The notes: a model not told the origin generated them from the letters alone. 32,000 nucleotides of DNA from Patescibacteria group bacterium (GCA_041662745.1 JBAZRV010000008.1:1-32000); one strand, 5' to 3'. Positions 10,577-32,000 are shown, numbered from the stretch's first letter. Made by a program: numbers and translations.

Positions 10577-10623
10577 ATGATTAAAAATTAATTATTGATT
10601 ATTGGCCGATGGTTTTGATTCTG

Positions 10624-11509: not shown

Positions 11510-11761
11510 TTAGGCCAGCTTAAAAACTTCATCGCCCTCTTTTACCGGCTGATCAACCTTAAAGCCGACGGCTTGGCCGACATTAGCCATAGACACTTCT
11601 GCGCGATCAATCTGCAAAGAATTAACGGCCTGCTCAAACTCTCTGTCTCCCCCCTTGACTTTAATGGTATCGCCAACGGCCAGTTGACCGTCACTCAGTT
11701 CAATCACGCCGACCCCGATCTTGCCGAAGTAGTGAGTGATTTTACCGATTTTTTCTTCCAT
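11510..11761 (-). CDS. Small beta-barrel protein resembling EF-Tu domain 2 (translation-factor-like), 83 aa
   Basis: GKITHYFGKIGVGVIELSDGQLAVGDTIKVKG...VGFKVDQPVKEGDEVF has the pattern of translation-factor domain II barrels. Its stop abuts the queH start. Confidence 0.65.
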   Translation of the reverse strand: MEEKIGKITHYFGKIGVGVIELSDGQLAVGDTIKVKGGDREFEQAVNSLQIDRAEVSMANVGQAVGFKVDQPVKEGDEVFKLA

Positions 11762-11765
11762 ATGT

Positions 11766-12206
11766 TTAATTTTTTAATGTTTTGATCAAATTATCAGCTT
11801 CCGCCAGAATTTCTTTCGGCTGTTTAAAACGCACTAATTTCTGGGCGGTCGTCAGATCAAACCAACCATAACCGTTATGTTCGTGGGAAATTTTCGGTTC
11901 GGTGCCGGGCGGAACTTCAGCCAAATAAATCACAAAATCCTTTTTAATCAGGTCGTTTCCCCCATGATGCGTTTCCCGAAACATAAACTCCGTCTGTTCT
12001 CTAAAACCGTCAATTACTTTAATATCTTTTAAGCCGGCTTCTTCGTACAGTTCGCGCAAACCGGTTTCTAACTCGCTCTCTCCTTCCTCCATTTTGCCTT
12101 TAGGAAAATTCCAATAACTGCCCCGGTGATACAATACCAAATATTGCAAGCCTTCTTTAGGATGGCGGCGAAAAATAATAAAACCGACTGATTTTTGTCT
12201 GATCAT
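11766..12206 (-). CDS. Nudix hydrolase
   Basis: Complete Nudix box GKMEEGESELETGLRELYEEAGL (Gx5Ex7REUxEExGU). Confidence 0.88.
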   Translation of the reverse strand: MIRQKSVGFIIFRRHPKEGLQYLVLYHRGSYWNFPKGKMEEGESELETGLRELYEEAGLKDIKVIDGFREQTEFMFRETHHGGNDLIKKDFVIYLAEVPPGTEPKISHEHNGYGWFDLTTAQKLVRFKQPKEILAEADNLIKTLKN

Positions 12207-13564: not shown

Positions 13565-13586
13565 AAAAAAAAGGGGCGATCCCTTT
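13565..13586 (-). terminator. Rho-independent terminator closing the signalling/giant-protein operon
   Basis: Minus strand: AAAGGG-atcgc-CCCTTT (13581-13586 pairs with 13570-13575), followed directly by a T run (A run 13565-13569 on the + strand). It lies 24 nt after the histidine kinase stop and is the only sizeable intergenic gap in about 18 kb. Confidence 0.7.
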
Positions 13587-13609
13587 GTTGCAGATCTTTC
13601 ATTAATCGA

Positions 13610-15985
13610 TTAAGCCGGACTTAATTCCTTAGTGCCCACTTTTTTCTTCATGCCTTTAAGGGGTAAAGAAATATAAAAAGTTGAACCCTTATTTTCTTTG
13701 GATGTAAACCATACTTTGCCGCCCGCTTTTTCCACTATAGACTTGACCATATACAACCCCAAACCGGTGCCATCGGTTTCTTTATTCCTGACATTATCCG
13801 CCCGAAAAAGCTTGGTGAAAATTTTGACTTTAGCGTTCTCCGGTATGCCATAGCCATTATCAGCAATACTAATCAAGATATTTTCTCCTTGCTTGGATAA
13901 AATAACGCTCACCTTGCCCTTGGCCGGCGTATATTTGATTGCATTAGTCAGTAAATTTTGGATCAAAATCCTAACTAAATTGGGATCGGCCTTGACTAAG
14001 GGCAGATCTTTGCTGTAATGTTCTGCCAGTTTAATTTTCTTTTTGACGATTTGAGGCTTCAGCTCTCCAATAATGCTGCGGGAAATCTTTTTGAAATCAA
14101 TCAGTTTCGGTTCAATAGCAAAAGTTCCAAGATCAATCCGTGAAACATTGAGGAAGGCGTTAACCAACGCCACCATTCGCTTATTACTGTTGCGCACCTC
14201 GGTTAAGTAACTCTTCTGATCCTTATTAAGCTTGCCGGCAGCGCCTTTCAATAAGATTTCCGTGTACCAATTGACTGCCGCTAAGGGTGTACGCAACTGA
14301 TGTGATGCCAAAGAAACGAACTCAGTCTTCGCCTGATCTATTTGTTTTTCCTTAGTAATATCAATCTGAACGGCGGAAGCGCCTATAATCCGCCCTTGAG
14401 AATCTTTGACTGGTGAAACAGACAATGAAATATCCACTAAACTTCCATCTTTCCTCTTCCTGACGGTCTGAAAATGCTCAATTTCTTTGCCTTCAGAGAT
14501 TTTCTTCAAAAAATCATCAATTTCTTGATAGCGATCGGGGGGCGCCGTTATCCTGATGTTTTTTCCAATCGCTTCTTTAGCCGTATAGCCATACAGATTT
14601 TCCGCTCCCTTATTCCAACTAGTGATCGTACCAGCCAGGGTTTTACCGATAATCGGCTGTTCAGCGCCACGAACAATCGCCGCTAAATCTTCAGCTCTGT
14701 TCTTTTCTTCTTCTACGTCTTCTAAAATATTCAAAATCGCTTTCTGCTGTTTGGCCATGACTTCGGCGCGGCGGGAAATTTCTTTGGTTTGTTGTTTGAC
14801 TTTTTTTTCTGTTTCTTGCTTGCTATTATTGACGGCTGATAACATTTGATTGAAAGCCTCGGTCATCGTCTGTAATTCATCGTAATGTTTCAATGGCTGC
14901 AAATAAGCCCCCCAATCGCCCCGGCTGATCTTCAGCGCCGCCTCATTTAATTTTTTGATAGGGCGCAATAGATTGCGTATAAACAAAACAGAAATAAAAA
15001 TAGCGGAACCGGCGGCCAAAACAACAAATAAAACCAACAATAAGGAGATATTCAAAGCTGGTCTGATATAGCGCGATGCATCCGCCTCAAAAATCATATA
15101 AAAATCAAATTTTCCTACTTTTATCACCCCCAAAAGCTCTCTCCGACCTTCCTGCCGATCATTAAAGTCAAATAACTTATAACCGGTAATGCCGGCTATG
15201 TCGGATTGCAAAAAATCATAAAACAACGGCTTAATAGCCTGATCTTGATAACACAGACAGTCGCTAATATTCTTTTGCTGTTCCGCGCTTAATACCCCCA
15301 AGCTTTTCAACTTCCTATCCTGGACCGAGGAGGCGATGATTACGCCGTTATCATCAACAATCATTAATTTATAACTGGCATCAAAATTAAACCAATTCAG
15401 ATCATTGACGACAGCATCGGAATTTATTTTTATAACCACCGCACCCAATATCTGACCTTGATTATCCTTAACCGGCACCGCATAATAAAAACCCAACTCA
15501 TGCGTGGTGACACCAAAATTGGCTACCATTTTCGCTTGGCCGTCAATGGCATTATGGAAATAATTACGGAAACGGTAATCATTGCCGAGTAAAGAAGGAT
15601 CGGTGGAAACAATGGCGACGCCATTCTTATCCAACAGATAAATAATGGAATATTCACCGCCGATATTGGCATCATTCAATCTTTCTACGACAGCCGGATC
15701 TTGGATGGCCGGCTGTTCACTGCTAAGAACATTAATTATCGCCGTGCTTTTGGATAAATAGTCAGCAGCAGCAATACTGTCGTCAAACAGCTGCTCAACC
15801 TGATGGCTGGAACTTTGAAGAGTGGCTGATAGGATATTTTTATTCTCATCGTAAAAAGAATTTTCTGCCAGCCAAAAAACACTCAGAGCGGCTAAAAAGC
15901 CAAAAATAATAATTACTAAAGCGATACTAAGAGTGGCCCTGCTAATCAGACTCCGATAAGGAATTTTTTTATTTGTTATCGCCAT
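13610..15985 (-). CDS. Sensor histidine kinase: TM, Cache-like periplasmic domain, TM, HAMP, coiled coil, PAS, HisKA, HATPase_c
   Basis: Two TM segments flank a sensor region of about 270 aa. HAMP (LLRPIKKLNEAALKISRGDW), PAS (SWNKGAENLYGYTAKEAIGKNI), H-box FVSLASHQLRTPL, N-box LLTNAIKYTP, G-boxes DNGYGIP and GTGLGLYMVKSIVE. Confidence 0.92.
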   Translation of the reverse strand: MAITNKKIPYRSLISRATLSIALVIIIFGFLAALSVFWLAENSFYDENKNILSATLQSSSHQVEQLFDDSIAAADYLSKSTAIINVLSSEQPAIQDPAVVERLNDANIGGEYSIIYLLDKNGVAIVSTDPSLLGNDYRFRNYFHNAIDGQAKMVANFGVTTHELGFYYAVPVKDNQGQILGAVVIKINSDAVVNDLNWFNFDASYKLMIVDDNGVIIASSVQDRKLKSLGVLSAEQQKNISDCLCYQDQAIKPLFYDFLQSDIAGITGYKLFDFNDRQEGRRELLGVIKVGKFDFYMIFEADASRYIRPALNISLLLVLFVVLAAGSAIFISVLFIRNLLRPIKKLNEAALKISRGDWGAYLQPLKHYDELQTMTEAFNQMLSAVNNSKQETEKKVKQQTKEISRRAEVMAKQQKAILNILEDVEEEKNRAEDLAAIVRGAEQPIIGKTLAGTITSWNKGAENLYGYTAKEAIGKNIRITAPPDRYQEIDDFLKKISEGKEIEHFQTVRKRKDGSLVDISLSVSPVKDSQGRIIGASAVQIDITKEKQIDQAKTEFVSLASHQLRTPLAAVNWYTEILLKGAAGKLNKDQKSYLTEVRNSNKRMVALVNAFLNVSRIDLGTFAIEPKLIDFKKISRSIIGELKPQIVKKKIKLAEHYSKDLPLVKADPNLVRILIQNLLTNAIKYTPAKGKVSVILSKQGENILISIADNGYGIPENAKVKIFTKLFRADNVRNKETDGTGLGLYMVKSIVEKAGGKVWFTSKENKGSTFYISLPLKGMKKKVGTKELSPA

Positions 15986-16001
15986 ACCGCCTCAATGTCA
16001 T

Positions 16002-16202
16002 TTAATTAATCAGCTGACTTAACTGTCCGGCAACAGACATATGCTCTATCTCCTGATCGCGAATAAGCAGTACGGCATCACGTTCAAAAGGATCAGCTAA
16101 GCTTTCCAAGAATTCATCATAGAGATTCAAAGCTTGCTTTTCCAGGGCATACAATTCAACAAAACTTTCAGCTAGCTCGGCTTTGCTTTTTTTTGTTTTC
16201 AT
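16002..16202 (-). CDS. 66-aa helical ORF overlapping the end of the PAS-PAS gene; possibly its displaced C-terminus
   Basis: MKTKKSKAELAESFVELYALEKQ...RDQEIEHMSVAGQLSQLIN. It overlaps the upstream ORF by 35 nt across a T8/A8 run (16187..16194). Its sequence resembles the last ~60 aa of the upstream ORF. Confidence 0.5.
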   Translation of the reverse strand: MKTKKSKAELAESFVELYALEKQALNLYDEFLESLADPFERDAVLLIRDQEIEHMSVAGQLSQLIN

Positions 16203-17307
16203 ATTTGATTAATTCTTTAAATTTTTTCTCATGTTCCCGGCTCTCCTCAAGCAGCTGTTCAAGAAGTTTTTTTATCTTTCTGACCTCAACGGCGCTTAAA
16301 TCGTAACTGCTTATCTTTGCCAAATAATCAGTAGTTAAGCTCTGCACCAGATCATCTTCCAGTTCTACGGCCTCCTGAAATTTTTGCGACCAGCTTTTTT
16401 CTGTCGCTGCTGGTTGCTCAACCGAACCCTTCCTAAGTTGTTCTTTAAGCTTGATTATCCGCAGTTCCCGTCCGACCATAAGCTCATTCAAACGTTCCAA
16501 GTCCCTCATTTTCTCCTTCAAACTATTCTCCGCCAGCCGCCGCTTAGTGATATCCAATGTAAAACCGATAACGCCCACGATGTCGCCGGCGGCATCGCGA
16601 TAAGGGATTTTATCGGTTTGGACCCAGAGAGTTTTATTAGGCAAAACCAAAGTTTCAATAATATTCCTCTTGGCCTTGCCCATTCTAATTACTTCCTTGT
16701 CATCATCCCAATAGGCTTGAGCCTGGTCTTTGCTGAAAAGATCAAACATGGATTTGCCCTGAAGCTGTTTCTTAGACATCCCCATTACATCGCTGAAGGC
16801 CCGGTTAACGCGGATAAAGCGATTATTTATATCTTTATAAAATATCCAAGCCGGCACGGAATCAAGAATTACTTCTATCTCCTGCTGCTGCCTGTGCAGA
16901 GCGTCTTCTATTTTCTTGCGCTCGGTAATATCACTGATTATACCCACCAAATAAAAATTTTTATTGCCGCTCTTAAAGACGTTCTTTTTAGTTATGATAT
17001 TATGCGTGACACCCCTGGCATCAGTGAATAATTCTTCATTGATATTCTCTTTGCCATTTTTAAACACCATTTCATCTTTACTCCAAAAAACCTTGGCCTC
17101 TTTATCCGAAAAAAAATCATAATCGGTTTTACCGATAAGCTTCTGCCGAGGGTACCCCATAAAAAGACAGTAAGCATCGTTAAGCAGAATCCAACGATGC
17201 TTGCGGTCTTTGACAAAAATCGGATCAGAAACCTTATTAATGATATCCAAAAGCACTTGCTCATCTTTGATAGAAAAATCAGAAGGCTTTGAAATTGGCG
17301 TTAGCAT
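16168..17307 (-). CDS. Cytoplasmic PAS-PAS protein with a coiled-coil/helical C-terminus; no kinase or other output domain in this frame
   Basis: Two PAS units (FVKDRKHRWILLNDAYCLFMGYPRQKLIGKTDYDFF and IFYKDINNRFIRVNRAFSDVMGMSKKQLQGKSMFDLF). These are followed by LKEKMRDLERLNELMVGRELRIIKLKEQL and a helical tail. Confidence 0.88.
   Translation of the reverse strand: MLTPISKPSDFSIKDEQVLLDIINKVSDPIFVKDRKHRWILLNDAYCLFMGYPRQKLIGKTDYDFFSDKEAKVFWSKDEMVFKNGKENINEELFTDARGVTHNIITKKNVFKSGNKNFYLVGIISDITERKKIEDALHRQQQEIEVILDSVPAWIFYKDINNRFIRVNRAFSDVMGMSKKQLQGKSMFDLFSKDQAQAYWDDDKEVIRMGKAKRNIIETLVLPNKTLWVQTDKIPYRDAAGDIVGVIGFTLDITKRRLAENSLKEKMRDLERLNELMVGRELRIIKLKEQLRKGSVEQPAATEKSWSQKFQEAVELEDDLVQSLTTDYLAKISSYDLSAVEVRKIKKLLEQLLEESREHEKKFKELIKYENKKKQSRAS
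16187..16194 (-). other. A8 (mRNA sense) homopolymer at the junction of the PAS ORF and the 66-aa ORF
   Basis: ...GAA AAC AAA AAA AAG CAA AGC CGA GCT AGC TGA. Removing one A gives ...ENKKSKAELAESFVELYALEKQ..., which joins the two ORFs. Confidence 0.6.
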
Positions 17308-17317
17308 AAGGAGGGGG

Positions 17318-17689
17318 TTACTTAATGCCCAATTTTTGCTGGACTTTAACGGCTACATCGGCGACATTCCAATCCACCTTGACCAAGTATTCAAAAGTTC
17401 CCAAGGCCACGGCTTGAGCGACCTTAGCTGAGTCGCTTAAATTACTCAAAATTACCACTTCGGCTTTCTTGCCCCACCGATCCTTACGTAACTTGGCTAA
17501 CATTTCCAAACCGTCCATCTTGGGCATTACCAAATCTAATAGAATTAAATCAGGTTTCTCTTTCTTGGCTAACCGTAAGCCCTCAACACCGTCTTTGGCA
17601 AGTAATACCTTAACCTGCCCGGCGTCAAATTGCGATGACAACGCCTTAAGCACGATTGGTTCATCATCAATGATTAACAATTTTTTCAT
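17318..17689 (-). CDS. Stand-alone response-regulator receiver domain (CheY-like), 123 aa
   Basis: IIDDE, phospho-acceptor context LILLDLVMPKMDG, ILSNL, YLVK. No output domain. Confidence 0.92.
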   Translation of the reverse strand: MKKLLIIDDEPIVLKALSSQFDAGQVKVLLAKDGVEGLRLAKKEKPDLILLDLVMPKMDGLEMLAKLRKDRWGKKAEVVILSNLSDSAKVAQAVALGTFEYLVKVDWNVADVAVKVQQKLGIK

Positions 17690-17723
17690 ATTGTATTTTA
17701 AATTTATAACCGTTTAACAATGA

Positions 17724-20699: not shown

Positions 20700-20722
20700 T
20701 ATAATATCTAAATATTTATATT

Positions 20723-23700
20723 TCAAACATTAGCTGACTGCCTTTTTCTGACCCGATACAGCCAGAAAATGACAGCGACTAAGACAATTAAGGTTATAAC
20801 TGTCGTCTGCCAGTTTAGATAACGATAAATCATTACCCAAAAGTTGCGCTTGACCGTAAAGGTGCTGACCGGACTGGGACGGCTCTTGACCTGCGCCGTT
20901 GAATCCAGGGTAACGGCAAAAACAGTATGCTGGCCCGGGGCCAGTTCTGTTATATCTTGCGAGTGATCAATACGCCAATTGCCCTGACTGTCAGCGCGCG
21001 TACGATAAATCAAAGCCTGATCGCTATGAATATAAATGATAACATCCCGATTGGGCAAAGAGACGCCGGAGAAACTCAGAGTATCGCCCGTAACCACGGT
21101 CTGCACGTTGGTAACTTGCGGTACCGGGATGCCGGCCAATTCTACGGCTTGAGCGTTCAACTCCACCAACTCTGCCGTTGGAGTCGGTCCAGTGGGGATG
21201 GCGGCAGCGGTTATTGCCGGCACAGCCGGCGTCGGCAGAACCACGACCTTATTAACAGCCACACTGGCTGAATCGCTGGTGTTGCCGGCCTGATCGCGAC
21301 TGACAGCGCCAATAATATGTTGGCCGTCAACCAGCGCCGAGGCGCTGGGCAATCGGAAACTCCAAGCGCCGGACGAATCGGCGGTTACGGTAAAGCTGCT
21401 GCGGTTGTCTAAAGTGATAATCACCTCAACGAGCGGTTCAGCTACGCCGGTGATTATTGGTGTCGCTTCAATTATGGCTGAATTATTAGCCGGATTTAAA
21501 ATTATCGGAACCGCCGGCGCCACACTGGTAATTATCAGAACAACCGGATCAGAAACCTGGCTGATATTCCCCGTTCCGTCAGTCGCCCTGACCGTTAAGG
21601 AATGGTTGCCCGGTAAAAAATTAAAAACCTGATTGAATCGGCCGCCATTGTCGGTAGCATTGCTTAATTGAGCGAACAAAACTCCGTTGTCAAACAAGTC
21701 AATACGCGATCCCGGTTCAGCCAAACCGCCGATAATAGTTATTGTGTTGTTGGTCGGCGAGTCCAGCGGATTCAAAAGCGGCTTAACCGGCGCAGTCGTA
21801 TCCGGCACCAAAATGGCACCACCGCCGACCACTGGCGGGATGACGGGCGGAACAACCGGAGGAGTTACCGGAGCAAAGACGTTAAGCTGGGTAACCGTCG
21901 CTTCATTGCCGTAATCGTCTATGGCCCAAATCTTAACATAATAATTGTCAGTGATATTCAAACCGGTGATGACCGTGGAGATGGCTAAGGGATTGGACAA
22001 GTTAGCATCGTTAACCACGCTCCATTTGCTGGCCGCGCCCGTGCGATTTATGACATCGCTTTCCGTTGCGTCATGCCATAACTCGTAGTGATTGAAATTA
22101 GCATCGGTTGTCGCTTGCCAATTCACGGTAACAGTCGTGGCGGTTTCCGAAAACTTGCTCAAAGAAGAAAGCCCCAAAGGCGCTCCCGTATCAACGGAAA
22201 AGTTAGCTGATTCATAATACGCGCTGGCATTGCCAAAACTGTCAGTGCCGCTAAAACGCACTCGCATATTGGAATTTTCTTGATTGATGAAATCCGCGCC
22301 GGCGTTCCAAATAATTGCTTTATTATTGCCCGCCGTTACCGTCCCCAAATCACCGGTCGCAGCAACCTTAGTAACCGTCCAAGTCAAACCGCCGTCAGAA
22401 GAAATATCCCAAGCAACATCAGCAGTCTCGCCCAAATCATAGCTTATCGCAACATTGTCCGTGCCAATGGTTTGGCCGGCTGAGATGCCGGAGATAATCG
22501 GGGCCTTAGTATCCAAAGCAAAATTGCCGGAAGAGTCATAAGCGCCTTGATTGCCGAAATAATCTTTAGCGCGGACGCGAACTCTCACCGTCGACAGATC
22601 TTGACCGGTAAAATCCGTACCGGCGGCCCAAGTGAAGGTCTTAGTCCCGATAGTCTGGCCGGGACCGATTTGGCCGCTTCTGGTTGTCGTGGGCACCGTC
22701 CAAGTAATGCCGCCATCATCGGAAATGCTGAATTCAATCAGATTGCCGGCCGGCGTAATATCCGTTAAGTTATAATTTATAACCACATCGGTCGTGCCGG
22801 CCGATTGGCTGGCAGTAACGTCACTGACTGCCGGGCCTTTAGTGTCAATGGTAAAATTATCAGAAATAACGATTGAACCGACGTTGCCATAACGATCCGT
22901 GCCTTGGAGTTTTATTTTAACGGCAGAATTTTCTTGATTAGGCAGGTCAACTTGCGGATTCCAACTGATACTCTTGCCGGCGCCGGCCGTAACGTTACTG
23001 CCGATATCGCCAGTTGCCGTAGTAAGAGCGACGGTATAAGTTAAACCGCCGTCAGCGGAAATTAATAAGCTAACGGTGTTGCTGGCACCGGAATTATCAG
23101 ATAAATCATAAGTGATTGCGGCCAAGCCCGTACCCGGAGCCTGCGTTAAATCAATATTGGAAACAACCGGTCCCAGGGTATCCGCATAAAAAGCCGAGGA
23201 AGCCGCCAAATTACTGTCAGCCAAAGCATCCGAGGACTTCAAGCGCGCATAGACCGTGGAATTCTCCTGATTGGGCAAATCAATCGCTATGTCCCAGGCA
23301 AAAACGTAAGCCGTACCGGCGGAAGCGAAAATTAGACTGGAAGTGCCGTTTGAACCCACCCCTAATTTTTCGGTCATAGCCTGCCAGTTGACATTATCAA
23401 TAGAATACTCAAAAACAGTTAAGTCATTAGTGTCATTTTGCGCGTCCGCGCCCGTATAATTGATTAATACGTAACCGCCGCTGGCCTGCTGAGCTGCGCT
23501 TGAGATATTAATTGAGGGGGCGGTATTAGCAATACCGGCCACTGTGGAAAAATCGGATTCGGAAGAGACTGAATGCGCGGCATCACTCGGATTGCGGGAT
23601 TTGATTTTAAAGCTATAGTTAGCCACCGGCGAACTCAAGCCATTAATGGTTACTTGACCGCTGTTACCGCTGGTTTGGCCCCATTGGCCGATGCCGGTGC

Positions 23701-25570
23701 CCAGTGTCTGCCAAACCGCACTGGCGCCTAAGGTACCATTGCTTTGCACGTATTGATCGGTGAAAACTTCATAAATGGCGTACGGCACATCACTGGCCTC
23801 GCCAAAAGCCGGATTGATCGTTACATCTACCGCAGTGTTCTGCGGATTATTAACTGTGGGCGCTGAGGGCGTATATGGCTTGACATATTTATAACTCGCC
23901 GTAGGAGAGGTGTTCTCATTTATCCTGGCGTGGCCGTAATTATCGGTTTCTATAATTTTAACCTTGGCAATATAGTCATGGCCGGTGAGCGTACCGCCAG
24001 CCGGTACGGCTTGGTTAGCCGGAGTCGCAGTATTACTTTCTCCCGTGGTGGTGGCCGAATAGGCGTTGCCGCTAAAAGCGACAAAAAACTCATTGGTAAT
24101 CGGATTAGCCTCGGTAAACGACCCGCTGACAATCGCATCAGTGTCGCCGGCTTGCGGCTGAGCCGCCAAATCGGCAGTCGCCAAGATCGCCGGAGCCAGG
24201 GTGTCCACGCTAAAGACGCCGGCTAAAACGGCATACGCGCTGCTATTGCCATAGGTATTGGTGCCGCGAATGCGGACTTTCATATTGCTGTTTTGCTGGC
24301 TATTGAAATCCACTCCCGGATTCCAAGAAACCGTCTTACCAAGTCCCGGTGCGACCCCATAACCGACAGCGCCAGTTAAGGTGGTGGTAACCACACTCCA
24401 AGTGACGCCGCCGTCATCGGAAATATCGACACTAATAACCACATTATCGCTATCAAATAAATTGTAAGTTATAGTGACATTATCGGAACCGACAACCTGC
24501 GCCGCCGTTAGGCCATTAATCACTGGGGCTTGAGTGTTAACGGCAAACAGGTTGGAAGTGACATTGCCGGTCGCATTGGCGTAAGCGTCAACGGCTCGCA
24601 AGCGAACCTGCATATTATTAACCTGCTGATTGGGAAAATTCGCTCCAGCATCCCAAGTGATGATCTTACCGTTGCCGGTTGTTATGCCCGAGCCAATGGC
24701 GCCGCTAACGCTTGAAGAAGCGACATCCCAGGTACTGCCTCCGTCCGAGGATATATCCATAGCCACAACAGAACTGTTAGCATCGCTAAAATCGTAACTT
24801 ATGGACACTAAACTGCTACTGACGACCTGAGCCGCGGCAACATTGGCAAAAACCGGGGCCTTGGTATCAACGGAAAAATCAGCAGATGAAACAAGCGTTC
24901 CGATATTGCCAAAATTATCCCTGGCTCCCGCTCGCACTCTGACCGTACCCGATTCTTGGCCGGAGTAATCAACACCGGGATTCCAGTTGATAGCCTTGCC
25001 GCTGCCCGGCACGACATTATCTCGAACATCGCCGGAAGCCGTGGAAGTCGCGACAGTCCAAGTTGATCCGCTGTCCGAAGAAACATCAAATTCCACATAA
25101 GAATCGGATAAATCGGTCAAATTATAACTTACGGATACATTATTTGAATCGGCATCTTGGCTGGCGGTGACCGAGGCCGTTACGGGGTTTTTGGTGTCAA
25201 TAATAAACGCCGCGGAAGCCGTTATGCCGCCACTGCTGGTGCCGTCGTTAGCCTGCAATCTGACAAAAACCGTCTCATCTTCGGTGTTAGGCAAATCCGC
25301 GCCCGCGTCCCACATAAAATCATGCGCGGTTCCGGAAGAAACAAAAGTTAAATCGGTTTTTCCGTCCGAACCCACCCCCGTTTTCTCGGTCATAGCATGC
25401 CAAACGGCATTGTCAGTGGAATATTGATAAATGACCAGGGTAGTGGTTTCGCTTTCCAAATCCGAACCGGTATAATTGATAATCGCATACTTGGTGCCGT
25501 CGGCAGTCTGAGCAACCGAATCAATGGCAATGGTCGGCGACTGGTTGACTGAAGAGGCGCTGCTGGACAA
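20723..25570 (-). CDS. Distal part of the giant repetitive surface protein: super-repeats 3-4, FN3, Pro-rich linker, three bacterial Ig-like domains, C-terminal TM anchor
   Basis: 1615-aa ORF with no signal peptide. The listed first codon is a TTG inside a frame that stays open upstream to 25726. The repeats each carry an Asp-box SxDxGxTW. Also present are FN3 (TVTVNWQA...YYVKIWAIDDYGNE), the linker VTPPVVPPVIPPVV, Ig-like units (ADSSGAWSF...DGQH, ADSQGNWRI...PGQH), and the C-terminal anchor WQTTVITLIVLVAVIFWLY followed by RVRKRQ. Confidence 0.85.
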   Translation of the reverse strand: MSSSASSVNQSPTIAIDSVAQTADGTKYAIINYTGSDLESETTTLVIYQYSTDNAVWHAMTEKTGVGSDGKTDLTFVSSGTAHDFMWDAGADLPNTEDETVFVRLQANDGTSSGGITASAAFIIDTKNPVTASVTASQDADSNNVSVSYNLTDLSDSYVEFDVSSDSGSTWTVATSTASGDVRDNVVPGSGKAINWNPGVDYSGQESGTVRVRAGARDNFGNIGTLVSSADFSVDTKAPVFANVAAAQVVSSSLVSISYDFSDANSSVVAMDISSDGGSTWDVASSSVSGAIGSGITTGNGKIITWDAGANFPNQQVNNMQVRLRAVDAYANATGNVTSNLFAVNTQAPVINGLTAAQVVGSDNVTITYNLFDSDNVVISVDISDDGGVTWSVVTTTLTGAVGYGVAPGLGKTVSWNPGVDFNSQQNSNMKVRIRGTNTYGNSSAYAVLAGVFSVDTLAPAILATADLAAQPQAGDTDAIVSGSFTEANPITNEFFVAFSGNAYSATTTGESNTATPANQAVPAGGTLTGHDYIAKVKIIETDNYGHARINENTSPTASYKYVKPYTPSAPTVNNPQNTAVDVTINPAFGEASDVPYAIYEVFTDQYVQSNGTLGASAVWQTLGTGIGQWGQTSGNSGQVTINGLSSPVANYSFKIKSRNPSDAAHSVSSESDFSTVAGIANTAPSINISSAAQQASGGYVLINYTGADAQNDTNDLTVFEYSIDNVNWQAMTEKLGVGSNGTSSLIFASAGTAYVFAWDIAIDLPNQENSTVYARLKSSDALADSNLAASSAFYADTLGPVVSNIDLTQAPGTGLAAITYDLSDNSGASNTVSLLISADGGLTYTVALTTATGDIGSNVTAGAGKSISWNPQVDLPNQENSAVKIKLQGTDRYGNVGSIVISDNFTIDTKGPAVSDVTASQSAGTTDVVINYNLTDITPAGNLIEFSISDDGGITWTVPTTTRSGQIGPGQTIGTKTFTWAAGTDFTGQDLSTVRVRVRAKDYFGNQGAYDSSGNFALDTKAPIISGISAGQTIGTDNVAISYDLGETADVAWDISSDGGLTWTVTKVAATGDLGTVTAGNNKAIIWNAGADFINQENSNMRVRFSGTDSFGNASAYYESANFSVDTGAPLGLSSLSKFSETATTVTVNWQATTDANFNHYELWHDATESDVINRTGAASKWSVVNDANLSNPLAISTVITGLNITDNYYVKIWAIDDYGNEATVTQLNVFAPVTPPVVPPVIPPVVGGGAILVPDTTAPVKPLLNPLDSPTNNTITIIGGLAEPGSRIDLFDNGVLFAQLSNATDNGGRFNQVFNFLPGNHSLTVRATDGTGNISQVSDPVVLIITSVAPAVPIILNPANNSAIIEATPIITGVAEPLVEVIITLDNRSSFTVTADSSGAWSFRLPSASALVDGQHIIGAVSRDQAGNTSDSASVAVNKVVVLPTPAVPAITAAAIPTGPTPTAELVELNAQAVELAGIPVPQVTNVQTVVTGDTLSFSGVSLPNRDVIIYIHSDQALIYRTRADSQGNWRIDHSQDITELAPGQHTVFAVTLDSTAQVKSRPSPVSTFTVKRNFWVMIYRYLNWQTTVITLIVLVAVIFWLYRVRKRQSANV

Positions 25571-28500
25571 AGCGCTATCACTGGAAGCGGCATGGGCTCC
25601 ATCACTGCTATTGCGCGATTTAACCTGGAATTGATAATGGTAGGAATCGAGGATTAAACCGCTGATATTAACTTTGCCGGCTACGCCTGAATAAAATCCC
25701 CACTGAAAAAAAGCCGGTACCGCTCACCTGCCAAACAGGACTGGCGCCTAAAGTTCCGTCGCTCTGCACATATTTATTCTGGGAACCTTCATAAATCGCG
25801 TATTCCAAACCATCGGTTTCTGCCGGATTTTTATTGATTAAAACATCCACCGTGCCAACGCCGGGATTGTTAACGGTCGGCGCCGACGGCGTGTACGGCT
25901 TAACATACTTATAGGCTGAATTAGGCGAGCCATTCTCATTGGTTATAGTCTGGCCGTAATCATCCGTATGAGTGATTTTGACTTGGGAAATATAATCATT
26001 ACCGTCCAAAGTGACGCCGACAACCGTAGCCTGATCGGCCGGCGAAGCGGTATTGACGCTTCCGGCAGTGGCGGAACCGTAAGAACCGCCGTCAATCGCT
26101 ACATAAAAATCATTGGTATTGGGGTTGGCCTCGGTAAAAGAACCGCCGATCAATGTTGTTGTTGCTCCGGCCAAAGGCTGGGCTGACAAATTAGCTATGA
26201 CGCTAACGGCCGGCGGCAGAGTATCAAGAGAAAAATCGGCTGAAGGCACATTGGCCGATTGATTGGCAAAAATATCCAAAGCCCTGACCCGCGCTTGCAT
26301 CGTACTTAAATTTTGATCGGGAAAATCAACGGCCGCATTCCAGGTGACGGTTTTGCCCGTTCCCGGGGTTATGTTGGCGCCGATCTCACCACTTAGGGTT
26401 GAGGTGGCCACTAACCAAGTTGACCCGCTATTGTTAGAAATATCCAATATTACCAAAGAATTGTTCTGATCGGCTAAATCATAAGTAATTGTTACGCTTG
26501 TTCCGCCCAAAGGTTGCGTGGCTGAAACATTGGTTAGGCGCGGGGACTTAGTGTCCAAAGAAAAATCAGAAGAGGCTAAAGCGCTATTATTGCTAAAACT
26601 GTCGGTCGCGGTCAAACGGAATTGCATGTTAGTCTTTTCCTGATCATTATAATCGGCGCCAGCGTCCCAAGTGATGGTTTTGCCGGATCCGGGTATGACT
26701 GCTACGCCCAAATCGCCAGTTGCCGAAGAGGTGGCCACAGTCCAAGTTGATCCCCCGTCGGCGGAAACAGCCAATAATAGATTAGCATTGCCGGCGTCTT
26801 CGGAAACATCATAATGAAAAGTAAAAGTATTGGCATTGCCGTCTTGGCCGGCGGAAAGATTAGACAATACCGGCGCATGCGTATCAACGGTAAAGATTGC
26901 GGAACCGCTATAAGATCCCTGATTGCCAAAGCTGTCCCGAGCTCTAACCCGCACCAGGACATTGGTATTATATTGATTGTCATAATCAGCTCCGGCATTC
27001 CAAGCAACGCTTTTGCCAACGCCCGGCGTTACCCCTGAACCGACGGCGCCGGTTAAGCTTGAGGTGGCGACAGTCCAGGTTGACCCGCCATCGCCGGAAA
27101 TATCTATCTGAATCAAAGAGCTGTTAGCGTCGGTTAAATTATAAGTTATGGCCACGGTTCTGGCGCCGGCGTTTTGGCTGGCGGTTACATCCGAGACAAC
27201 CGGAGCCTTGTTATCCAAAGAAAAATTCGCCGAAGCGACTAAACTGCCGTCAGTCAAGGTGTCGTTTCCTCTTAAACGAATCTTGGCTGTGGTTGTTTCC
27301 AAGCTCGGTAAATCCGCGCCCGAATCCCAAACAAAACTATAAGCGCTGCCGGTCGGCAAAAATATCAGATTAGCCGTGCCATTACTGCCTGCGCCGGACT
27401 TCTCTGTCATGGCCTGCCAACTGGAGCCGTCAACGGAATACTCGTAAGCGGATAAATAAGTAACATCGCCCTGGCCATCCGTACCCGTATAAGCAATGGG
27501 GCTGTACTGCGAGCCGTCTGTTGTTTGGGCATAACTGTCTAAAACAATGCCGGGGGCGGTATTGGTGATTTGCGCCGTAGCGGAAAAAGCCGAGTCCGAA
27601 GACGCCGCATGGCCGGCATCACTGGGGTTGCGCGACTTAACCTTAAAAATATAATTAGCCACCGGCGAAGATAAGCCGGTTATTCTGACCGTACCGGCCG
27701 AACCGGTATTATTGCCCCATTGGCCGGAACCGGTGCCGATAATCTGCCAAACCGGGCTGACGCCTAAAGTGCCGTCGCTCTGCACATATTTGGAAGTCGT
27801 GGTTTCAAATAGAGCGTATTGCACATCACCGGCTTCGCCGGCGTGCGAATTAATTGTCAAATCCAAACGCGTGGTAACGGGATTGCTCAAGGTCGGGGCT
27901 GACGGCGTATAAGGCTTAACATACTTATAAATGGAATTCGGAGTTAAATTTTCATTAACTCCCAGGTTGAAGTAATCATCGGTATGAACAATCTTAACCT
28001 GAGAAATATAATCATTGCCGTCCAAAGTGGCGCCGACAGCCGTGGCAAGATTAGACGGAGTAGCCGTATCACTGTCGCCGGCCGTAGATGAGCTGTAACC
28101 GCCTCCGTCAATCGCCACATAAAAATGATTGGCATCGGGATTAACCTCGGTAAACGATCCGCCGATTAAAACCGCAGTGTCGCCGGCGTTGGGTTGAGCT
28201 TGCAAATCAGCCGCGGTTAATGTCGCTGCCGGCAAAGTATCCAAAGAAAAATTAGCCGAGGCGGAATAAACGCCCTGGTTCTGCCACTTGTCCTTGGCCC
28301 GGATGCGCACTCGCATATTGCTTTTCTGTTGGTTGGGATAATCCGCGCCGGCAGTCCAATAAATTGTCTTGCCATTGCCGGCCGTTACTCCCGCGCCGAC
28401 AGCGCCGCTAACGCCGGTTGCCGGTACCGTCCAAGTATCTCCGTCATCGCCCGATATTTGCATCTCTACCAAAATATTATCGGCGGTATCATCAAATAAA

Positions 28501-28922
28501 TCATAAGTGACGGCCACTGTCGTTGTGCCCAAGGGTTGAGTGGCTAAAACATTGGAAACGGTGGAAGAAACATAATCAACGGTGAAAACGGAGGAAGTGG
28601 CATAAATGCCATTGCCGATGCCGTCATTAGGCCGTAAACGAACATAAGTGGTGGTAACGACGTCGCCCAATTGCGAACGGGCGTCCCAAACGAAAGTGTG
28701 GGGCGTACCGCCGGAAGAAGCGGGCAAGCCGGAAACTCCGCTATGGGCCGGATCGGTGGTGGAGGCGGTCATAGTCACCGCGTCGGCAAAGGTGCCGGAT
28801 AAGGAATACTCATAAGCCGTCAAACTGGATATATCGTCTTCCGCGTCTTGCAAATTATAATTGACATGGACATAACCATAAGTTGTGTCTTGCGCCGGCG
28901 CCACAGATTGCACCTGGGGTCG
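22187..28922 (-). repeat. In-frame array of four diverged super-repeats inside the giant gene, period 2016 nt (672 codons)
   Basis: Unit 1 is 27552..28922 (A-B-C). Unit 2 is 25532..27551 (A-B-B-B-C, contains the frameshift). Unit 3 is 23516..25531 (A-B-B-B-C). Unit 4 is 22187..23515 (A-B-B-B). The landmark INYTG occurs at residues 31-35 and 703-707 of ORF 20723..25570. The landmark YKYVKPYTPSAPT recurs near 27915, 25895 and 23880. Confidence 0.85.
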
Positions 28923-30269
28923 CTGATTTTGCGTGTAAGTAATGGTGATATTATCCAAAATCACCTGCTGAGTGCCATCGCTCGACAAGTAAGCGCGCCA
29001 TTTTATTTGATTGGTAGAAGTGGTGAATTTAGAAATATTGGCGTTAACATCGGTTGCTGTATTATAATCAGTCGTTAAGGTGGTGGTCGCCCAAGCTGAG
29101 CCGTTGTAATATTGCCAATTAGACCCGTCATCAGCTGACAATTGATAATAAATTTCTCCGCCGTTTTTAGTCGCTGTTTCCACGAAAGAATTCCAACTTA
29201 CCGTCTTGAGCATCGTCAATGAGGCGACTGGAGTAGTTGTTGGCTTATCGGAAGCATAAGCATGAGTGGTTTTCGACCAATCCAACTGGATATTGTCAAA
29301 ACCAACCGTATAAGGACCAATATTAGAACCGCCGGTTTCCAGCCAAACAGCTAACTTAAGATAATAAGTGCCAATAGCCGTTACCTTGGAAGAAACATCC
29401 AAATTGCTGACCGAAGTCCAACCTTGGGTAGCGGTTATTTCTCCCGACGACCAGACCTCTTGGCCGATAGTCGGCGCGCCGGTGCCAGTATCAATAAAAG
29501 CGTAAACCTTAAAGGTTATGGGCGGATTGGGAGTAGAATCATAAGCTGTAACATGATAATCAAAACTTACAGTTGCTGTCGGATCGGTAACAGTGGTGGT
29601 AAAGCCCTGCCGCCAATAACCGCCTAATTCATCATCTTTGCCGGACGGCGCGCTGATATTTACCCAGCCGCCGGGATTGCCGCCAGTCGTAATCCTAGCT
29701 CCGGTAATATTAACCTCGCCCCCTCCCTGGCCCCAATCGGCATAAGTCCAACCGGTGGTATCGCTGTCAAAACCGGGGTTGGTGATGTTGCCACTATCGG
29801 TCGTACCATTATCTTTTAATTGAGCTACCCCGCCGGTTACCTCAATTTTGGCAGGGTCATAAGTGTAATCGCCGGCGTTGTCAAAAGTCCAATCCTGCGT
29901 GTCGGCCAAAATCTGAATTGCGCCCAAAAAAATAAAAGATAAGATGCCGACGACCAAAATTTTCAAAACAAACAGGCCTCCCGCGCCGCCTGCAGTGGCC
30001 AAACTGATGCGCCGCCTGACGGTGTAAACCCGCAGAGGCTTAACGGCTTTCTGCCGGCTGGGAAAAATCATTCCTTGCTCTTGCAATCGGTCCGGCGGAA
30101 CCAACAGGTACATGGGCAAGGAGACAACGGCAAACACGACTTCTATCGCCAATAATTCTACGGCTAAAGGCAGGACTCTGTACCATTGTCCGGTTTTAAC
30201 GACTTTTTGACGCAAACCGAAAACATAGCCGGAATAAGAAAAAAATAGATTTAGCCAGCGCTTAGACAT
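25668..30269 (-). CDS. Proximal part of the giant repetitive surface protein: N-terminal TM module, lectin/CBM-like jelly-roll region, super-repeats 1-2. It is truncated 14 codons after a T7 run
   Basis: The likely start is MSKRWLNL at 30269, 2 nt after the stop of the 273-aa gene. Two hydrophobic segments are followed by NPGFDSDTTGWTYADW, a CBM-like signature. After that come Asp-box beta-sandwich repeats and FN3-like modules. Confidence 0.88.
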   Translation of the reverse strand: MSKRWLNLFFSYSGYVFGLRQKVVKTGQWYRVLPLAVELLAIEVVFAVVSLPMYLLVPPDRLQEQGMIFPSRQKAVKPLRVYTVRRRISLATAGGAGGLFVLKILVVGILSFIFLGAIQILADTQDWTFDNAGDYTYDPAKIEVTGGVAQLKDNGTTDSGNITNPGFDSDTTGWTYADWGQGGGEVNITGARITTGGNPGGWVNISAPSGKDDELGGYWRQGFTTTVTDPTATVSFDYHVTAYDSTPNPPITFKVYAFIDTGTGAPTIGQEVWSSGEITATQGWTSVSNLDVSSKVTAIGTYYLKLAVWLETGGSNIGPYTVGFDNIQLDWSKTTHAYASDKPTTTPVASLTMLKTVSWNSFVETATKNGGEIYYQLSADDGSNWQYYNGSAWATTTLTTDYNTATDVNANISKFTTSTNQIKWRAYLSSDGTQQVILDNITITYTQNQRPQVQSVAPAQDTTYGYVHVNYNLQDAEDDISSLTAYEYSLSGTFADAVTMTASTTDPAHSGVSGLPASSGGTPHTFVWDARSQLGDVVTTTYVRLRPNDGIGNGIYATSSVFTVDYVSSTVSNVLATQPLGTTTVAVTYDLFDDTADNILVEMQISGDDGDTWTVPATGVSGAVGAGVTAGNGKTIYWTAGADYPNQQKSNMRVRIRAKDKWQNQGVYSASANFSLDTLPAATLTAADLQAQPNAGDTAVLIGGSFTEVNPDANHFYVAIDGGGYSSSTAGDSDTATPSNLATAVGATLDGNDYISQVKIVHTDDYFNLGVNENLTPNSIYKYVKPYTPSAPTLSNPVTTRLDLTINSHAGEAGDVQYALFETTTSKYVQSDGTLGVSPVWQIIGTGSGQWGNNTGSAGTVRITGLSSPVANYIFKVKSRNPSDAGHAASSDSAFSATAQITNTAPGIVLDSYAQTTDGSQYSPIAYTGTDGQGDVTYLSAYEYSVDGSSWQAMTEKSGAGSNGTANLIFLPTGSAYSFVWDSGADLPSLETTTAKIRLRGNDTLTDGSLVASANFSLDNKAPVVSDVTASQNAGARTVAITYNLTDANSSLIQIDISGDGGSTWTVATSSLTGAVGSGVTPGVGKSVAWNAGADYDNQYNTNVLVRVRARDSFGNQGSYSGSAIFTVDTHAPVLSNLSAGQDGNANTFTFHYDVSEDAGNANLLLAVSADGGSTWTVATSSATGDLGVAVIPGSGKTITWDAGADYNDQEKTNMQFRLTATDSFSNNSALASSDFSLDTKSPRLTNVSATQPLGGTSVTITYDLADQNNSLVILDISNNSGSTWLVATSTLSGEIGANITPGTGKTVTWNAAVDFPDQNLSTMQARVRALDIFANQSANVPSADFSLDTLPPAVSVIANLSAQPLAGATTTLIGGSFTEANPNTNDFYVAIDGGSYGSATAGSVNTASPADQATVVGVTLDGNDYISQVKITHTDDYGQTITNENGSPNSAYKYVKPYTPSAPTVNNPGVGTVDVLINKNPAETDGLEYAIYEGSQNKYVQSDGTLGASPVWQVSGTGFFSVGILFRRSRQS
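25706..25712 (-). other. A7 (+ strand) / T7 (coding strand) homopolymer: the frameshift site in the giant gene
   Basis: Coding strand: GGT ACC GGC TTT TTT TCA GTG ... TAA. The +1 frame is open from 25726 downstream and carries the expected paralogous sequence. Confidence 0.8.
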
Positions 30270-30271
30270 AG

Positions 30272-31093
30272 CTAAAGAGTTAATATGGTTAAGAAAATTC
30301 CTAATAAGATGATAATAATCACCGACCAATTGGCCAAGGAATCAATATTCTTGGCGATTAAATCAAACCAAGTGGAAGTTACTTTGAAATATTGGGTCGG
30401 CGCAGTCTCGCTCCTGGTCCCCTGCTGTTGATTGTAACTAAAAACCAGCACCGAATGATTGCCCTCGCTTAAACGAAAATTGCTTTGCAGTTGTTCTATC
30501 CGCCAGTTGCCGGCTGAATCCGCATCGGCCGTATAAACCGCCGTCTGCTGATCCGACAACAATAAAACAACCGTAGCCAGCGGTTGTCCAACGCCTGAGA
30601 AGACGTAATTGCCTCCCCTGATTTTTTTGACTTGTCGCAATTCCGGCCTCGCCATAGTGTTTACTACGCGAGCCGTCTGGATTCCCGTATCAGCGGCCAC
30701 CAATTCCTGTTGCGTAATGTCGGCCGGCTGTAAATCGCCTACCGAATAAAGTTGCAAGGGACCGAAAACGGTCGGTGTCAAAACAATAATCAATAATTTT
30801 GCCAGCCAAACCAAAGCGATAACGCCAACGCCGGTAACTGTTAGGATGCGGCGTAAATTATAATCAAAATTCACTTGGGCATAAGACCCTTGGTCGGCGA
30901 AATAAGCCGTAACGTCGCGAGACTTCAAGGTCAGATATAACGGAAGAGAGGTCACGGCTAAAAATATCTCCCAGAAAAAAAGTAGGAAAATATTATAAAC
31001 TGCCTCCAACCCAGTTTGCCCTACGATAAGTTGTTTGCGATTATAGATGCGGTTGGTTAAAAGCAATACGAGATTTAACCATTTATTCTTCAT
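30272..31093 (-). CDS. 273-aa membrane protein: a mini-paralog made of the giant protein's N-terminal TM module plus its last Ig-like domain and C-terminal TM anchor
   Basis: MKNKWLNLVLLL...EIFLAVTSLPLYL...RRILTVTGVGVIALVWL aligns with MSKRWLNLFFSY...EVVFAVVSLPMYL...RRISLATAGGAGGLFVL. FSGVGQPLATVVLLLSDQQTAVYTADADSAGNWRIEQ...EGNHSV aligns with FSGVSLPNRDVIIYIHSDQALIYRTRADSQGNWRIDH...PGQHTV. The C-terminal helix is WSVIIIILLGIFLTILTL. Confidence 0.85.
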   Translation of the reverse strand: MKNKWLNLVLLLTNRIYNRKQLIVGQTGLEAVYNIFLLFFWEIFLAVTSLPLYLTLKSRDVTAYFADQGSYAQVNFDYNLRRILTVTGVGVIALVWLAKLLIIVLTPTVFGPLQLYSVGDLQPADITQQELVAADTGIQTARVVNTMARPELRQVKKIRGGNYVFSGVGQPLATVVLLLSDQQTAVYTADADSAGNWRIEQLQSNFRLSEGNHSVLVFSYNQQQGTRSETAPTQYFKVTSTWFDLIAKNIDSLANWSVIIIILLGIFLTILTL

Positions 31094-31105
31094 CTATTGT
31101 AGTAT

Positions 31106-31489
31106 TTAAGTGCTTAAAATTTTCTCAACCTTGTCTTTTAAGACGGATAAGTCCGTATCAGCCTTAATAAAATAATCCCTGGCGCCCAAATCCTTGGCTT
31201 TCTTAATATCTTCTTCATCGCCCAAATTAGACAAAACGATTACCGGCGTGGCTCGTAAATTAGTATTGGCCTTAATATTCTTAAGAAACTCAAAACCGTT
31301 CATTTTCGGCAATAACAGATCAAGCAAAACAACATTCGGCTTGGTTCTTTCCGCCATGTGCAGGGCGGTTTCACCGTCAGTGGCGGTAGCGATAGTAAAG
31401 CCGCCTTCATGAAAAACCAGATACAGCGCTCTTAATAGAATTTCATCGTCTTCAACTATCAAAACTATTTTTGTTCCTTCTTTCGCCAT
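31106..31489 (-). CDS. Stand-alone response-regulator receiver domain, 127 aa
   Basis: LIVEDDE, VVLLDLLLPKMNG, VLSNL, YFIKAD. No output domain. Confidence 0.92.
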   Translation of the reverse strand: MAKEGTKIVLIVEDDEILLRALYLVFHEGGFTIATATDGETALHMAERTKPNVVLLDLLLPKMNGFEFLKNIKANTNLRATPVIVLSNLGDEEDIKKAKDLGARDYFIKADTDLSVLKDKVEKILST

Positions 31490-31492
31490 ATT

Positions 31493-31912
31493 TTAATCTT
31501 TTAACGACTTTTTAATATAATCGATGATTTTTTTCATCTCCGTATTGGCTTTAATGAAATATTCTTCGGCGCCCAAGGCCTTAACCGATTTAACATCGCC
31601 AATCTCGTCAAGATTTGACAGGACGACAACGGGGATATTTTTTACTTTGTCATCGGCCTTCAACTCCTTAAGCACCGTAAAACCGTCAATGCCGGGAATA
31701 ACCAAATCCAACAAAATCAGCTGAGGTAAGAATTTTTTGACCATGGCGACGGCATCATTGCCGTTATCCACCACCATGACCTCAAAGCCTTCGTTTTTTA
31801 AGCTTTCTGCCAACACTTTGGATAACAAAGAATCATCCTCCACAACCAGGACTTTTCGGGGTTGTTTTTTGGATTGACCTTTCTCTCCAAGGCCAAAAAT
31901 GGTTTTTAGCAT
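31493..31912 (-). CDS. Stand-alone response-regulator receiver domain with a short basic N-terminal extension, 139 aa
   Basis: LVVEDDS, LILLDLVIPGIDG, VLSNL, YFIKAN. No output domain. Confidence 0.92.
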   Translation of the reverse strand: MLKTIFGLGEKGQSKKQPRKVLVVEDDSLLSKVLAESLKNEGFEVMVVDNGNDAVAMVKKFLPQLILLDLVIPGIDGFTVLKELKADDKVKNIPVVVLSNLDEIGDVKSVKALGAEEYFIKANTEMKKIIDYIKKSLKD

Positions 31913-31948
31913 AATTTGATTAAGTTGCCCCCCAAATTAGTTAAATAT

Positions 31949-31993
31949 AGTATACCACAATATTATACCATAAACAAAATAAATGCGCATCAA
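31949..31993 (-). promoter_or_regulatory. Candidate sigma70-type promoter for the operon (extended -10)
   Basis: The minus strand reads agcgcgcTTGATGcgcatttattttgtttaTGgTATAATattgtggTATACTatattt. TGGTATAAT is at 31962..31970. A second -10-like element, TATACT, lies at 31949..31954, 17 nt downstream of TTGTTT. The first ATG follows about 40-50 nt later at 31912. Confidence 0.4.
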
Positions 31994-32000
31994 GCGCGCT

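Follow-up and report, generated by a model that had tools for sequence, protein, structure and literature searches.

Organization of the Locus

The locus described here is a block of genes for a giant surface protein and two-component signaling proteins, located in a 32,000-nt stretch of DNA (hereafter the window) from a Patescibacteria group bacterium (GCA_041662745.1, JBAZRV010000008.1:1-32000). Open reading frame (ORF) calling places ten ORFs on the minus strand, from 31912 to 13610, at the positions reported in an initial annotation of this DNA, and the junctions recomputed from the coordinates are identical to those first given: 3, 12, 2, a frameshift, 23 (or -4), 34, 10, -35, and 16 nt. 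In order, the ORFs encode two stand-alone receivers (REC1 and REC2), a small membrane protein (MINI), the giant protein in two frameshifted pieces, a soluble histidine kinase (HK1), a third receiver (REC3), a PAS-PAS protein, a 66-amino-acid (aa) ORF (ORF66), and a transmembrane histidine kinase (HK2). The coordinates are collected in Table 1; the minus strand carries every large ORF of the window. We infer that the module at the head of this block represents two-component signaling with a protein-contact output, tied to an unannotated membrane family and a giant surface protein.

Domain calls were made with Pfam on the ten block proteins at a cut-off of E ≤ 0.01. Each of the three receivers matches Response_reg alone, and both kinases have HisKA and HATPase_c matches well above the Pfam cut-offs. 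Helix-turn-helix (HTH), GGDEF/EAL, Hpt, CheA, and CheW have no Pfam match in the ten proteins at this threshold, and NCBIfam gives nothing above its cut-offs for the block, with generic sub-threshold matches for the receivers. DNA-binding or enzymatic output domains were likewise found neither elsewhere in the window nor in the ORF just beyond 32000, in agreement with the initial statement that no recognizable output domain is encoded. A partner DNA-binding regulator just past position 32000 had been named as something that would undermine the proposed functional link; the 270-aa ORF found there has no family match in Pfam or NCBIfam, and a PDB sequence search with it was empty.

Table 1. Features of the signaling and surface-protein block, with positions in the window.
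Feature	Position	Strand	Basis
Candidate promoter	31949..31993	-	Sequence read; motif kept in relatives
REC1, 139-aa stand-alone receiver with short N-terminal extension	31493..31912	-	Pfam Response_reg only
REC2, 127-aa stand-alone receiver	31106..31489	-	Pfam Response_reg only
MINI, 273-aa membrane protein	30272..31093	-	No Pfam/NCBIfam family; homologues, AlphaFold2 model
Giant surface protein, 3181 aa after 1-nt frameshift repair	20723..30269	-	ORFs, Pfam, repeat analysis
Homopolymer tract, coding-strand T7 (plus-strand A7), frame change in giant	25706..25712	-	Sequence comparison with relative
HK1, soluble 5xPAS-HisKA-HATPase_c kinase, ~991-1000 aa	17724..20699	-	Pfam
REC3, 123-aa stand-alone receiver, paired with HK1	17318..17689	-	Pfam
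PAS-PAS protein, 379 aa	16168..17307	-	Pfam, NCBIfam
66-aa ORF (ORF66)	16002..16202	-	Sequence; reality as gene uncertain
HK2, 791-aa transmembrane dCache_1-HAMP-PAS-HisKA-HATPase_c kinase	13610..15985	-	Pfam
Intrinsic-terminator-like hairpin (AAAGGGATCGCCCCTTT) and T-run	13565..13586	-	23 nt past HK2 stop

A Conserved Receiver-Membrane Protein Core

Conservation of gene order was assessed from context look-ups, a one-genome-per-species scan (28 loci), and a metagenome scan (41 loci) that was seeded with a six-sequence alignment of distant MINI members. About 20 kb was inspected per relative, and the loci, 60 of which are distinct after removal of duplicates, were annotated with profiles from the window proteins. 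Every genome-collection locus with sufficient flanking sequence has REC1, REC2, MINI, and the giant gene co-directional and in this order; these loci represent 28 species that include Buchananbacteria, Magasanikbacteria, Uhrbacteria, and Falkowbacteria. MINI is directly preceded by one or more bare receivers in 52 of the 55 assessable loci; of the three loci counted as zero, L041 does have a receiver, which was missed because of an ORF overlap. A paralogue bearing the N-terminal membrane module adjoins MINI in 50 of 51 assessable loci (46 downstream and four divergently upstream). The sole exception, L034 (OW818634.1, a complete 896-kb chromosome; 10001-12117), features a deletion that extends from MINI residue ~220 through the giant gene and into the fourth PAS domain of the HK1 orthologue. 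Immediately after MINI there stand only the final PAS domains and the catalytic core of this kinase, which has lost its first ~520 residues, and the arrangement is either a natural deletion variant or a misassembly.

The number of receivers differs between the two branches of the module. In the ABY1-type branch there are two, clear orthologues of REC1 and REC2. In the distant branch, where MINI is 20-30% identical, there is a single receiver that is always REC2-like, followed by MINI and then the paralogue. The partner in the position of the giant has 283 aa in L056 (304-1969) and L057 (1004-2668), where two MINI-sized paralogues stand in tandem after the receiver; in L056 a kinase comes after them. 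Because this partner is so short, the huge ectodomain is optional and the paired membrane modules are not. The genes that flank the core vary by lineage (e.g., LeuRS, ABC, and MFS genes), and the conservation is therefore specific to the core.

The kinases are found in 14 of the 28 loci of at least 12 kb, either behind the giant gene, in some cases together with a REC3 orthologue, or ahead of the receivers. Thus, the synteny first proposed for the giant, its small paralogue, the stand-alone receivers, and the PAS kinases holds in part: the receiver-receiver-MINI-giant order is kept in all 28 species and in the metagenome loci, but the kinases are downstream, upstream, or absent, and no counterpart of the PAS-PAS protein, ORF66, or the Cache kinase turned up in the other loci examined. 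The conserved unit is REC(-REC)-MINI-large paralogue and not the whole 18-kb block. The link between receivers and surface proteins, which a gene order not conserved in relatives was said to undermine, survives the comparison.

The MINI Family

No Pfam or NCBIfam family covers MINI. Its 201 homologues come from Buchananbacteria, Magasanikbacteria, Uhrbacteria, Falkowbacteria, and unclassified Patescibacteria; nearly all are 272-275 aa in length, and the mean column identity in the close (ABY1-type) set is 70%. Surface proteins are rarely so uniform in length and sequence. When 1.84 billion representatives were searched exhaustively with a profile, about 60 further full-length clusters of 254-285 aa, extending to 20-30% identity, came up. 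MINI is an unannotated family that could now be defined as one, with members of ~255-285 aa, and the window protein shows all of its hallmarks. Scored over 54 representatives down to 20% identity, conservation reaches at least 90% at W5 and K20 of the N-terminal helix; at E42, L45, S49, P51, and Y53 of the first hydrophobic helix (E42..S49-x-P51-x-Y53); at R81-R82 of a basic YxxRR loop; at W96 and K99 of the second hydrophobic helix; at several residues of the immunoglobulin-like (Ig) domain; and at D251 and N255 ahead of the C-terminal transmembrane segment (TM). Two of these, the nearly invariant Glu42 and Lys99, sit inside the hydrophobic helices.

Hydropathy gives three membrane segments. 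The AlphaFold2 (AF2) model, with a predicted local distance difference test (pLDDT) score of 77, features helices at 2-24, 29-55, and 78-110 and a beta-hairpin at 62-73, after which a flexible linker leads to an Ig sandwich (151-238) and then to a helix at the C-terminus (250-272). The Ig domain alone resembles solved structures or sequences, namely Bap, SiiE, and MpIBP RII. Foldseek matches of MINI to KirBac structures in the PDB were rejected, as they reflect architecture only (root-mean-square deviation ~28 Å). The N-terminus of MINI, its TM1-TM2 loop, and the C-tail of the giant are all strongly basic, and the simplest consistent picture would place these three parts in the cytoplasm with the repeats of the giant outside.

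The Giant Surface Protein

Both ends of the giant resemble MINI. Its N-terminal membrane module is homologous to the MINI N-terminus (23% over 120 aa, E = 2e-5), and its last Ig domain and TM, after which comes the basic tail, are homologous to the MINI C-terminus (28% over 116 aa, E = 2e-14). These alignments show MINI to be paralogous to both ends of the giant. The hallmark E..SxPxY, present in 62 of 64 MINI sequences, recurs in the N-termini of 48 of 52 large paralogues; RR is found in 52 of 52, and W..K is found there too. Between its ends, the giant has a jelly-roll/Reelin-B-like region after the N-module (Pfam), three super-repeats of 672-673 aa at residues 782, 1454, and 2127 (window ~27926, 25910, and 23890), each of which ends in three Asp-box Ig domains, and then Big_13 domains. 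In all, ten domains of ~110 aa bear the Asp-box (BNR-motif) S-x-D-x-G-x-T-W. An AF2 model of the repeat made from ten internal copies is an all-beta sandwich (pLDDT 84.5) whose fold matches are weak and generically Ig/PKD-like, and an adhesive role for the giant may be read from this architecture. Giant orthologues range from 1109 to >4600 aa, which suggests gain and loss of super-repeat units, and the distant-branch paralogues go down to 283 aa.

The frameshift reported initially in the giant gene is genuine at the level of the sequence: one extra base at GGC-T7 splits the ORF into pieces of 1553 and 1615 aa, and the deletion of one T restores an ORF of 3181 aa, equal in length to the intact orthologue of an 89%-identical relative (958-kb contig). 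The tract in L003 reads GGT-T6 and is in frame, and a second assembly (L001) has the same frameshift as the window. The lesion could be a fixed frameshift or recent pseudogene, phase variation, slippage, or an assembly error. Because the giant gene is frameshifted, the system may be off or decaying in the window genome. An explanation in which the module here is a cluster of decaying pseudogenes that no longer has a function would account for the identical frameshift in two assemblies and would fit the large deletion in the relative L034. However, the halves of the giant are still long open frames with no further stops, the nine other ORFs are intact, and a single-base lesion at a T7 tract also fits phase variation, transcriptional slippage, or assembly error. 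A cluster without function is thus considered quite improbable.

Receivers and Kinases

The three receivers are 35-39% identical to each other, and all bear the acidic pocket, phospho-acceptor Asp, Thr/Ser, and Lys. REC1 is confined to the ABY1-type branch, with orthologues that are 57-86% identical among the homologues listed, and its acidic pocket, phospho-acceptor Asp, Ser, Asn, and Lys are kept in 34-35 of 35 orthologues. Among REC2-like sequences of both branches (n = 67), D57, K109, S/T87, N88, and Y/F106 are each found in 67 of 67, the Tyr/Phe being at the CheY-106 position, and the acidic pocket is likewise kept in all 67. With their phospho-sites intact, the receivers look functional. 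REC2 always lies directly upstream of MINI, with a gap of typically 1-54 nt, and is the deeply conserved partner. The nearest solved relatives are generic receivers, those of Spo0F (the closest for REC2), PleD, and PhoB.

One feature of REC2 deserves separate mention. Residues 87-88 (window ~31226-31231), which follow beta-strand 4, are a Ser/Thr and then an invariant Asn (67/67). Most receivers have Ala at the position of this Asn. The Ser/Thr-Asn pair may be a family signature that affects phosphorylation kinetics or partner binding.

The two kinases have closely related catalytic cores, as the initial annotation had it, with 42% identity over 233 aa (E = 2e-70). HK1 starts with an ATG at 20699, and an alternative TTG is at 20726. 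An HK1 orthologue follows the giant in L003, L009, and L010, and kinases also follow the giant in L014, L017, L028, L030, L043, and L051; no kinase was found next to the module in the Uhrbacteria loci. The pair of kinase and REC3 recurs in L010, L028, and L030, with a weaker receiver after the kinase in L051, and this recurrence is limited to some lineages. REC3, the PAS-PAS protein, ORF66, and the Cache kinase are lineage-specific. The C-terminal region of the PAS-PAS protein (~120 aa) is helical and matches no family. ORF66 overlaps the PAS-PAS stop by 35 nt, holds an ExxH motif, and has weak sub-threshold NCBIfam matches to encapsulin-associated ferritin-like proteins. It may encode a small helical protein that binds metal, or it may not be a gene.

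Conventional transcriptional control is another reading. The signal could reach DNA, and regulate the operon, through an unrecognized Hpt-like or DNA-binding partner encoded elsewhere, the inspected sequence being ~20 kb per relative rather than whole genomes, or through the PAS-PAS C-terminal region or ORF66, neither of which has an assigned function. However, the latter two are not conserved alongside the core, and neither the block nor the rest of the window nor the upstream ORF encodes an Hpt, an HTH, or another output domain. All 75 REC-containing ORFs found across 478 kb of related loci are ≤160 aa, with no REC fused to an output domain among them; bare receivers are the norm around the module. 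Transcriptional control is therefore judged very improbable.

The Ends of the Block

A transcription unit of ~18 kb had been proposed to run from a candidate promoter to a terminator. The terminator claim is sound, as a hairpin followed by a T-run is found at 13570-13586. The candidate promoter consists of two extended -10-like boxes, TGGTATAAT at 31962-31970 and TGGTATACT at 31949-31957, and a GC hairpin at 31985-31999 precedes it. The second assembly of the same organism (L001) continues upstream and shows that the 270-aa ORF ends 28 nt before REC1, so that the candidate promoter falls within the last ~36 codons of this ORF as called. Conservation does not extend to the tail of the ORF: similarity between its product and the orthologue in the 89%-related genome ends at residue 234. 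The DNA motif TGTGGTATAAT...TGGTATACT is kept in the intergenic DNA before REC1 in L003 and L009, one of which has a different upstream gene, and a TATAAT-like box is found before the first receiver in most other lineages, often after a hairpin. A promoter in front of REC1 is plausible because of this conservation.

Within the block, gaps are ≤34 nt and leave no intergenic room for terminators, and it is thus plausible that the genes would be carried on a single ~18-kb transcript. Co-directionality says little about this, because the whole window is co-directional. Consensus scans for promoters and terminators are not enriched over shuffled sequences (41 vs. 33 ± 5 and 22 vs. 25 ± 5, respectively). 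TTGAAA-17-TATAAT (20726-20698), which matches a promoter best within the block, was rejected as an internal promoter, since it overlies the start codon of HK1 and is not conserved in relatives. At the contig start of L001 (60-170), upstream of the 270-aa ORF and past window position 32000, there is a long near-perfect inverted repeat, ggccgtggcgggcgggcaaaaa...tttttgcccgctttgatccgccacggcc.

Proposed Mode of Action

Because output-less receivers stay beside MINI and a relative of the giant in many ultra-small Patescibacteria, the data suggest that signaling reaches the surface apparatus directly, without gene regulation as an intermediate. In the mechanism that we favor, variable histidine kinases would phosphorylate the receiver or receivers; in the window these would be the cytoplasmic 5xPAS kinase and the Cache-domain membrane kinase, and in other lineages the kinases differ or would be encoded elsewhere. 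The phospho-receiver would then act through protein-protein contact, not on DNA, by docking on the cytoplasmic face of the MINI/giant pair. The likeliest docking site would be the conserved basic surface formed by the N-terminal helix (W5...K20) and the YxxRR loop. Docking may alter the display, clustering, retention, or conformation of the surface fiber, and the outcome would be inside-out control of an attachment apparatus. In our estimate, docking of this kind has about an even chance of being correct.

Several observations weigh against this proposal. Synteny can arise from co-expression without physical contact, and the kinases are not consistently linked to the core. Two loci, L062 and L068, have no receiver upstream of MINI, and in L068 unrelated genes are found there. 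The adhesive function is read from Ig-like folds, and the cytoplasmic face from the positive charge on the N-terminus, TM1-TM2 loop, and giant C-tail. Finally, because the giant of the window is frameshifted and L034 has lost most of the module, the system is dispensable at least sometimes.

The first of these points can be developed into an explanation of its own, in which the receivers are phosphate sinks or connectors for variable kinases and are merely co-expressed with the membrane proteins, the same condition calling for all of them, without contacting them. Stand-alone receivers that serve as sinks or hubs are well-known, MrrA being an example of a stand-alone receiver hub (PMC5964349); the window has three similar receivers beside two kinases, and REC3 with HK1 resembles an ordinary kinase-receiver operon. 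However, one would expect a sink to accompany its kinase and not MINI, and the adjacency of REC2 and MINI lasts to 20-30% identity while the surroundings, kinases included, reshuffle. The short gaps of 1-54 nt also suggest coupled expression and stoichiometry. Co-expression without contact is accordingly seen as unlikely.

The direction of the signal could also be reversed. MINI and the giant may be a contact or mechanical sensor (a co-receptor) that is read by the kinases and receivers, with a target elsewhere such as type IV pili, division, or metabolism. A variable ectodomain on a conserved membrane module is receptor-like, the nearly invariant charged residues in the membrane helices suggest transmission of a signal across the membrane, and kinases often adjoin the module. 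On the other hand, receivers obtain phosphate from kinases and not from membrane proteins of this sort, it is the receiver that is invariably linked and no kinase is, and no conserved neighborhood holds a candidate downstream target. Sensing from the outside in is for these reasons rather unlikely.

A more ambitious version of the favored docking mechanism deserves brief consideration. A CheY-like protein may dock on a heteromeric membrane module that extends, retracts, or moves the giant fiber, powered by membrane energy or conformational switching, with the homopolymer tract as an on/off switch. The intramembrane Glu/Lys pair can be likened to the charged residues of the ion-driven stators MotB, ExbD, and GldL. 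Such a phospho-gated machine is improbable; if true, episymbiotic cells would have in it a new device for attachment or motility.

Relation to Known Systems

The module would work much like several well-studied systems and belongs to none of those compared here. It has the HisKA/HATPase_c kinases and receiver phospho-residues of a canonical two-component system, but not a receiver-fused effector. The initial annotation also suggested a phosphorelay. This is not borne out: the ten proteins (E ≤ 0.01) and the neighboring genes include no Hpt or Spo0B-like protein, neither kinase has a REC and thus neither is a hybrid kinase, and no output-bearing regulator was found. The phosphorelay reading was rejected on these grounds. 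The chemotaxis pathway of CheY is distinguished by CheA, CheW, and chemoreceptor (MCP) genes, none of which is found in the window, and by a flagellar switch, which is likewise missing. In that pathway, phospho-CheY binds an N-terminal peptide of its membrane-associated target; the part of MINI and the giant that might correspond is the conserved N-terminal helix that they share.

The closest resemblance in the receivers is to single-domain regulators of the CheY/Spo0F/DivK type, which also consist of a bare REC with intact Asp/Ser/Lys chemistry, have no DNA-binding output, and are fed by PAS-rich, often cytoplasmic kinases. The module differs from them in its deeply conserved neighborhood with a specific pair of membrane proteins and in its lack of Hpt. 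In a census of archaeal two-component systems, REC-only regulators predominate and signal by protein-protein contact, and most of their genes have no conserved neighborhood from which targets could be inferred (PMC5847659). Stand-alone receivers are in general very common, and their targets are mostly unknown because the genes are rarely in conserved neighborhoods (PMC5847659). A receiver that is locked to a specific membrane-protein pair across deep divergence therefore offers a concrete, testable target. It also opens a way to ask how these Patescibacteria, ultra-small and probably dependent on hosts, might link environmental sensing to the cell surface without transcription factors.

Two systems provide precedents for signaling to a surface apparatus. 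PorX binds the membrane core protein PorL of the T9SS, the type IX secretion/gliding apparatus, and not promoters (PMC5005315). PorXY-PorL is similar in that a CheY-like regulator attaches to the cytoplasmic portion of a small membrane core protein, in a machine that deals with surface adhesins of very large size. However, PorX has an extra enzymatic domain and the receivers of the block are bare, PorL/PorM and the rest of the T9SS are absent here, the hosts of the module are monoderm-like Patescibacteria, and no known membrane core protein matches MINI in sequence or fold. The LapD-LapG-LapA system is alike in concept, with a cytoplasmic signal passed via a small membrane protein to a giant adhesin encoded adjacently, and the Ig domain of MINI resembles the repeats of such adhesins (Bap, MpIBP RII). 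In that case, the signal is cyclic di-GMP and not phosphorylation; no GGDEF/EAL/HAMP receptor, LapG-type protease, or type I secretion system genes were found here, and membrane segments at the N- and C-terminal ends of the giant itself serve as its anchors. Giant surface proteins of ultra-small or predatory bacteria, such as the products of Omnitrophota giant genes, reportedly have repetitive Ig-like ectodomains of several thousand residues, in bacteria presumed to rely on other cells. The proteins described here are smaller (1.1-4.7 kaa) and are defined by the MINI-type membrane module. We know of no module of receivers and a mini-paralogue among such giant surface proteins, and within the literature searched, no description of the module in Patescibacteria or the Candidate Phyla Radiation was found.

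Additional Observations

In L062, a 441-aa serine-recombinase-like ORF (158-1483) occupies the usual place of the receiver upstream of MINI, which suggests a mobile-element insertion or a rearrangement. The genes downstream of the block in the window are housekeeping genes, encoding RarA, a NUDIX protein, QueH, an HtrA-like protein, DnaE, an AAA+ protein, and a MiaB-like protein. Two tRNA genes are found at the low-coordinate end of the window, at 124-194 and 417-489 on the minus strand (Rfam RF00005).

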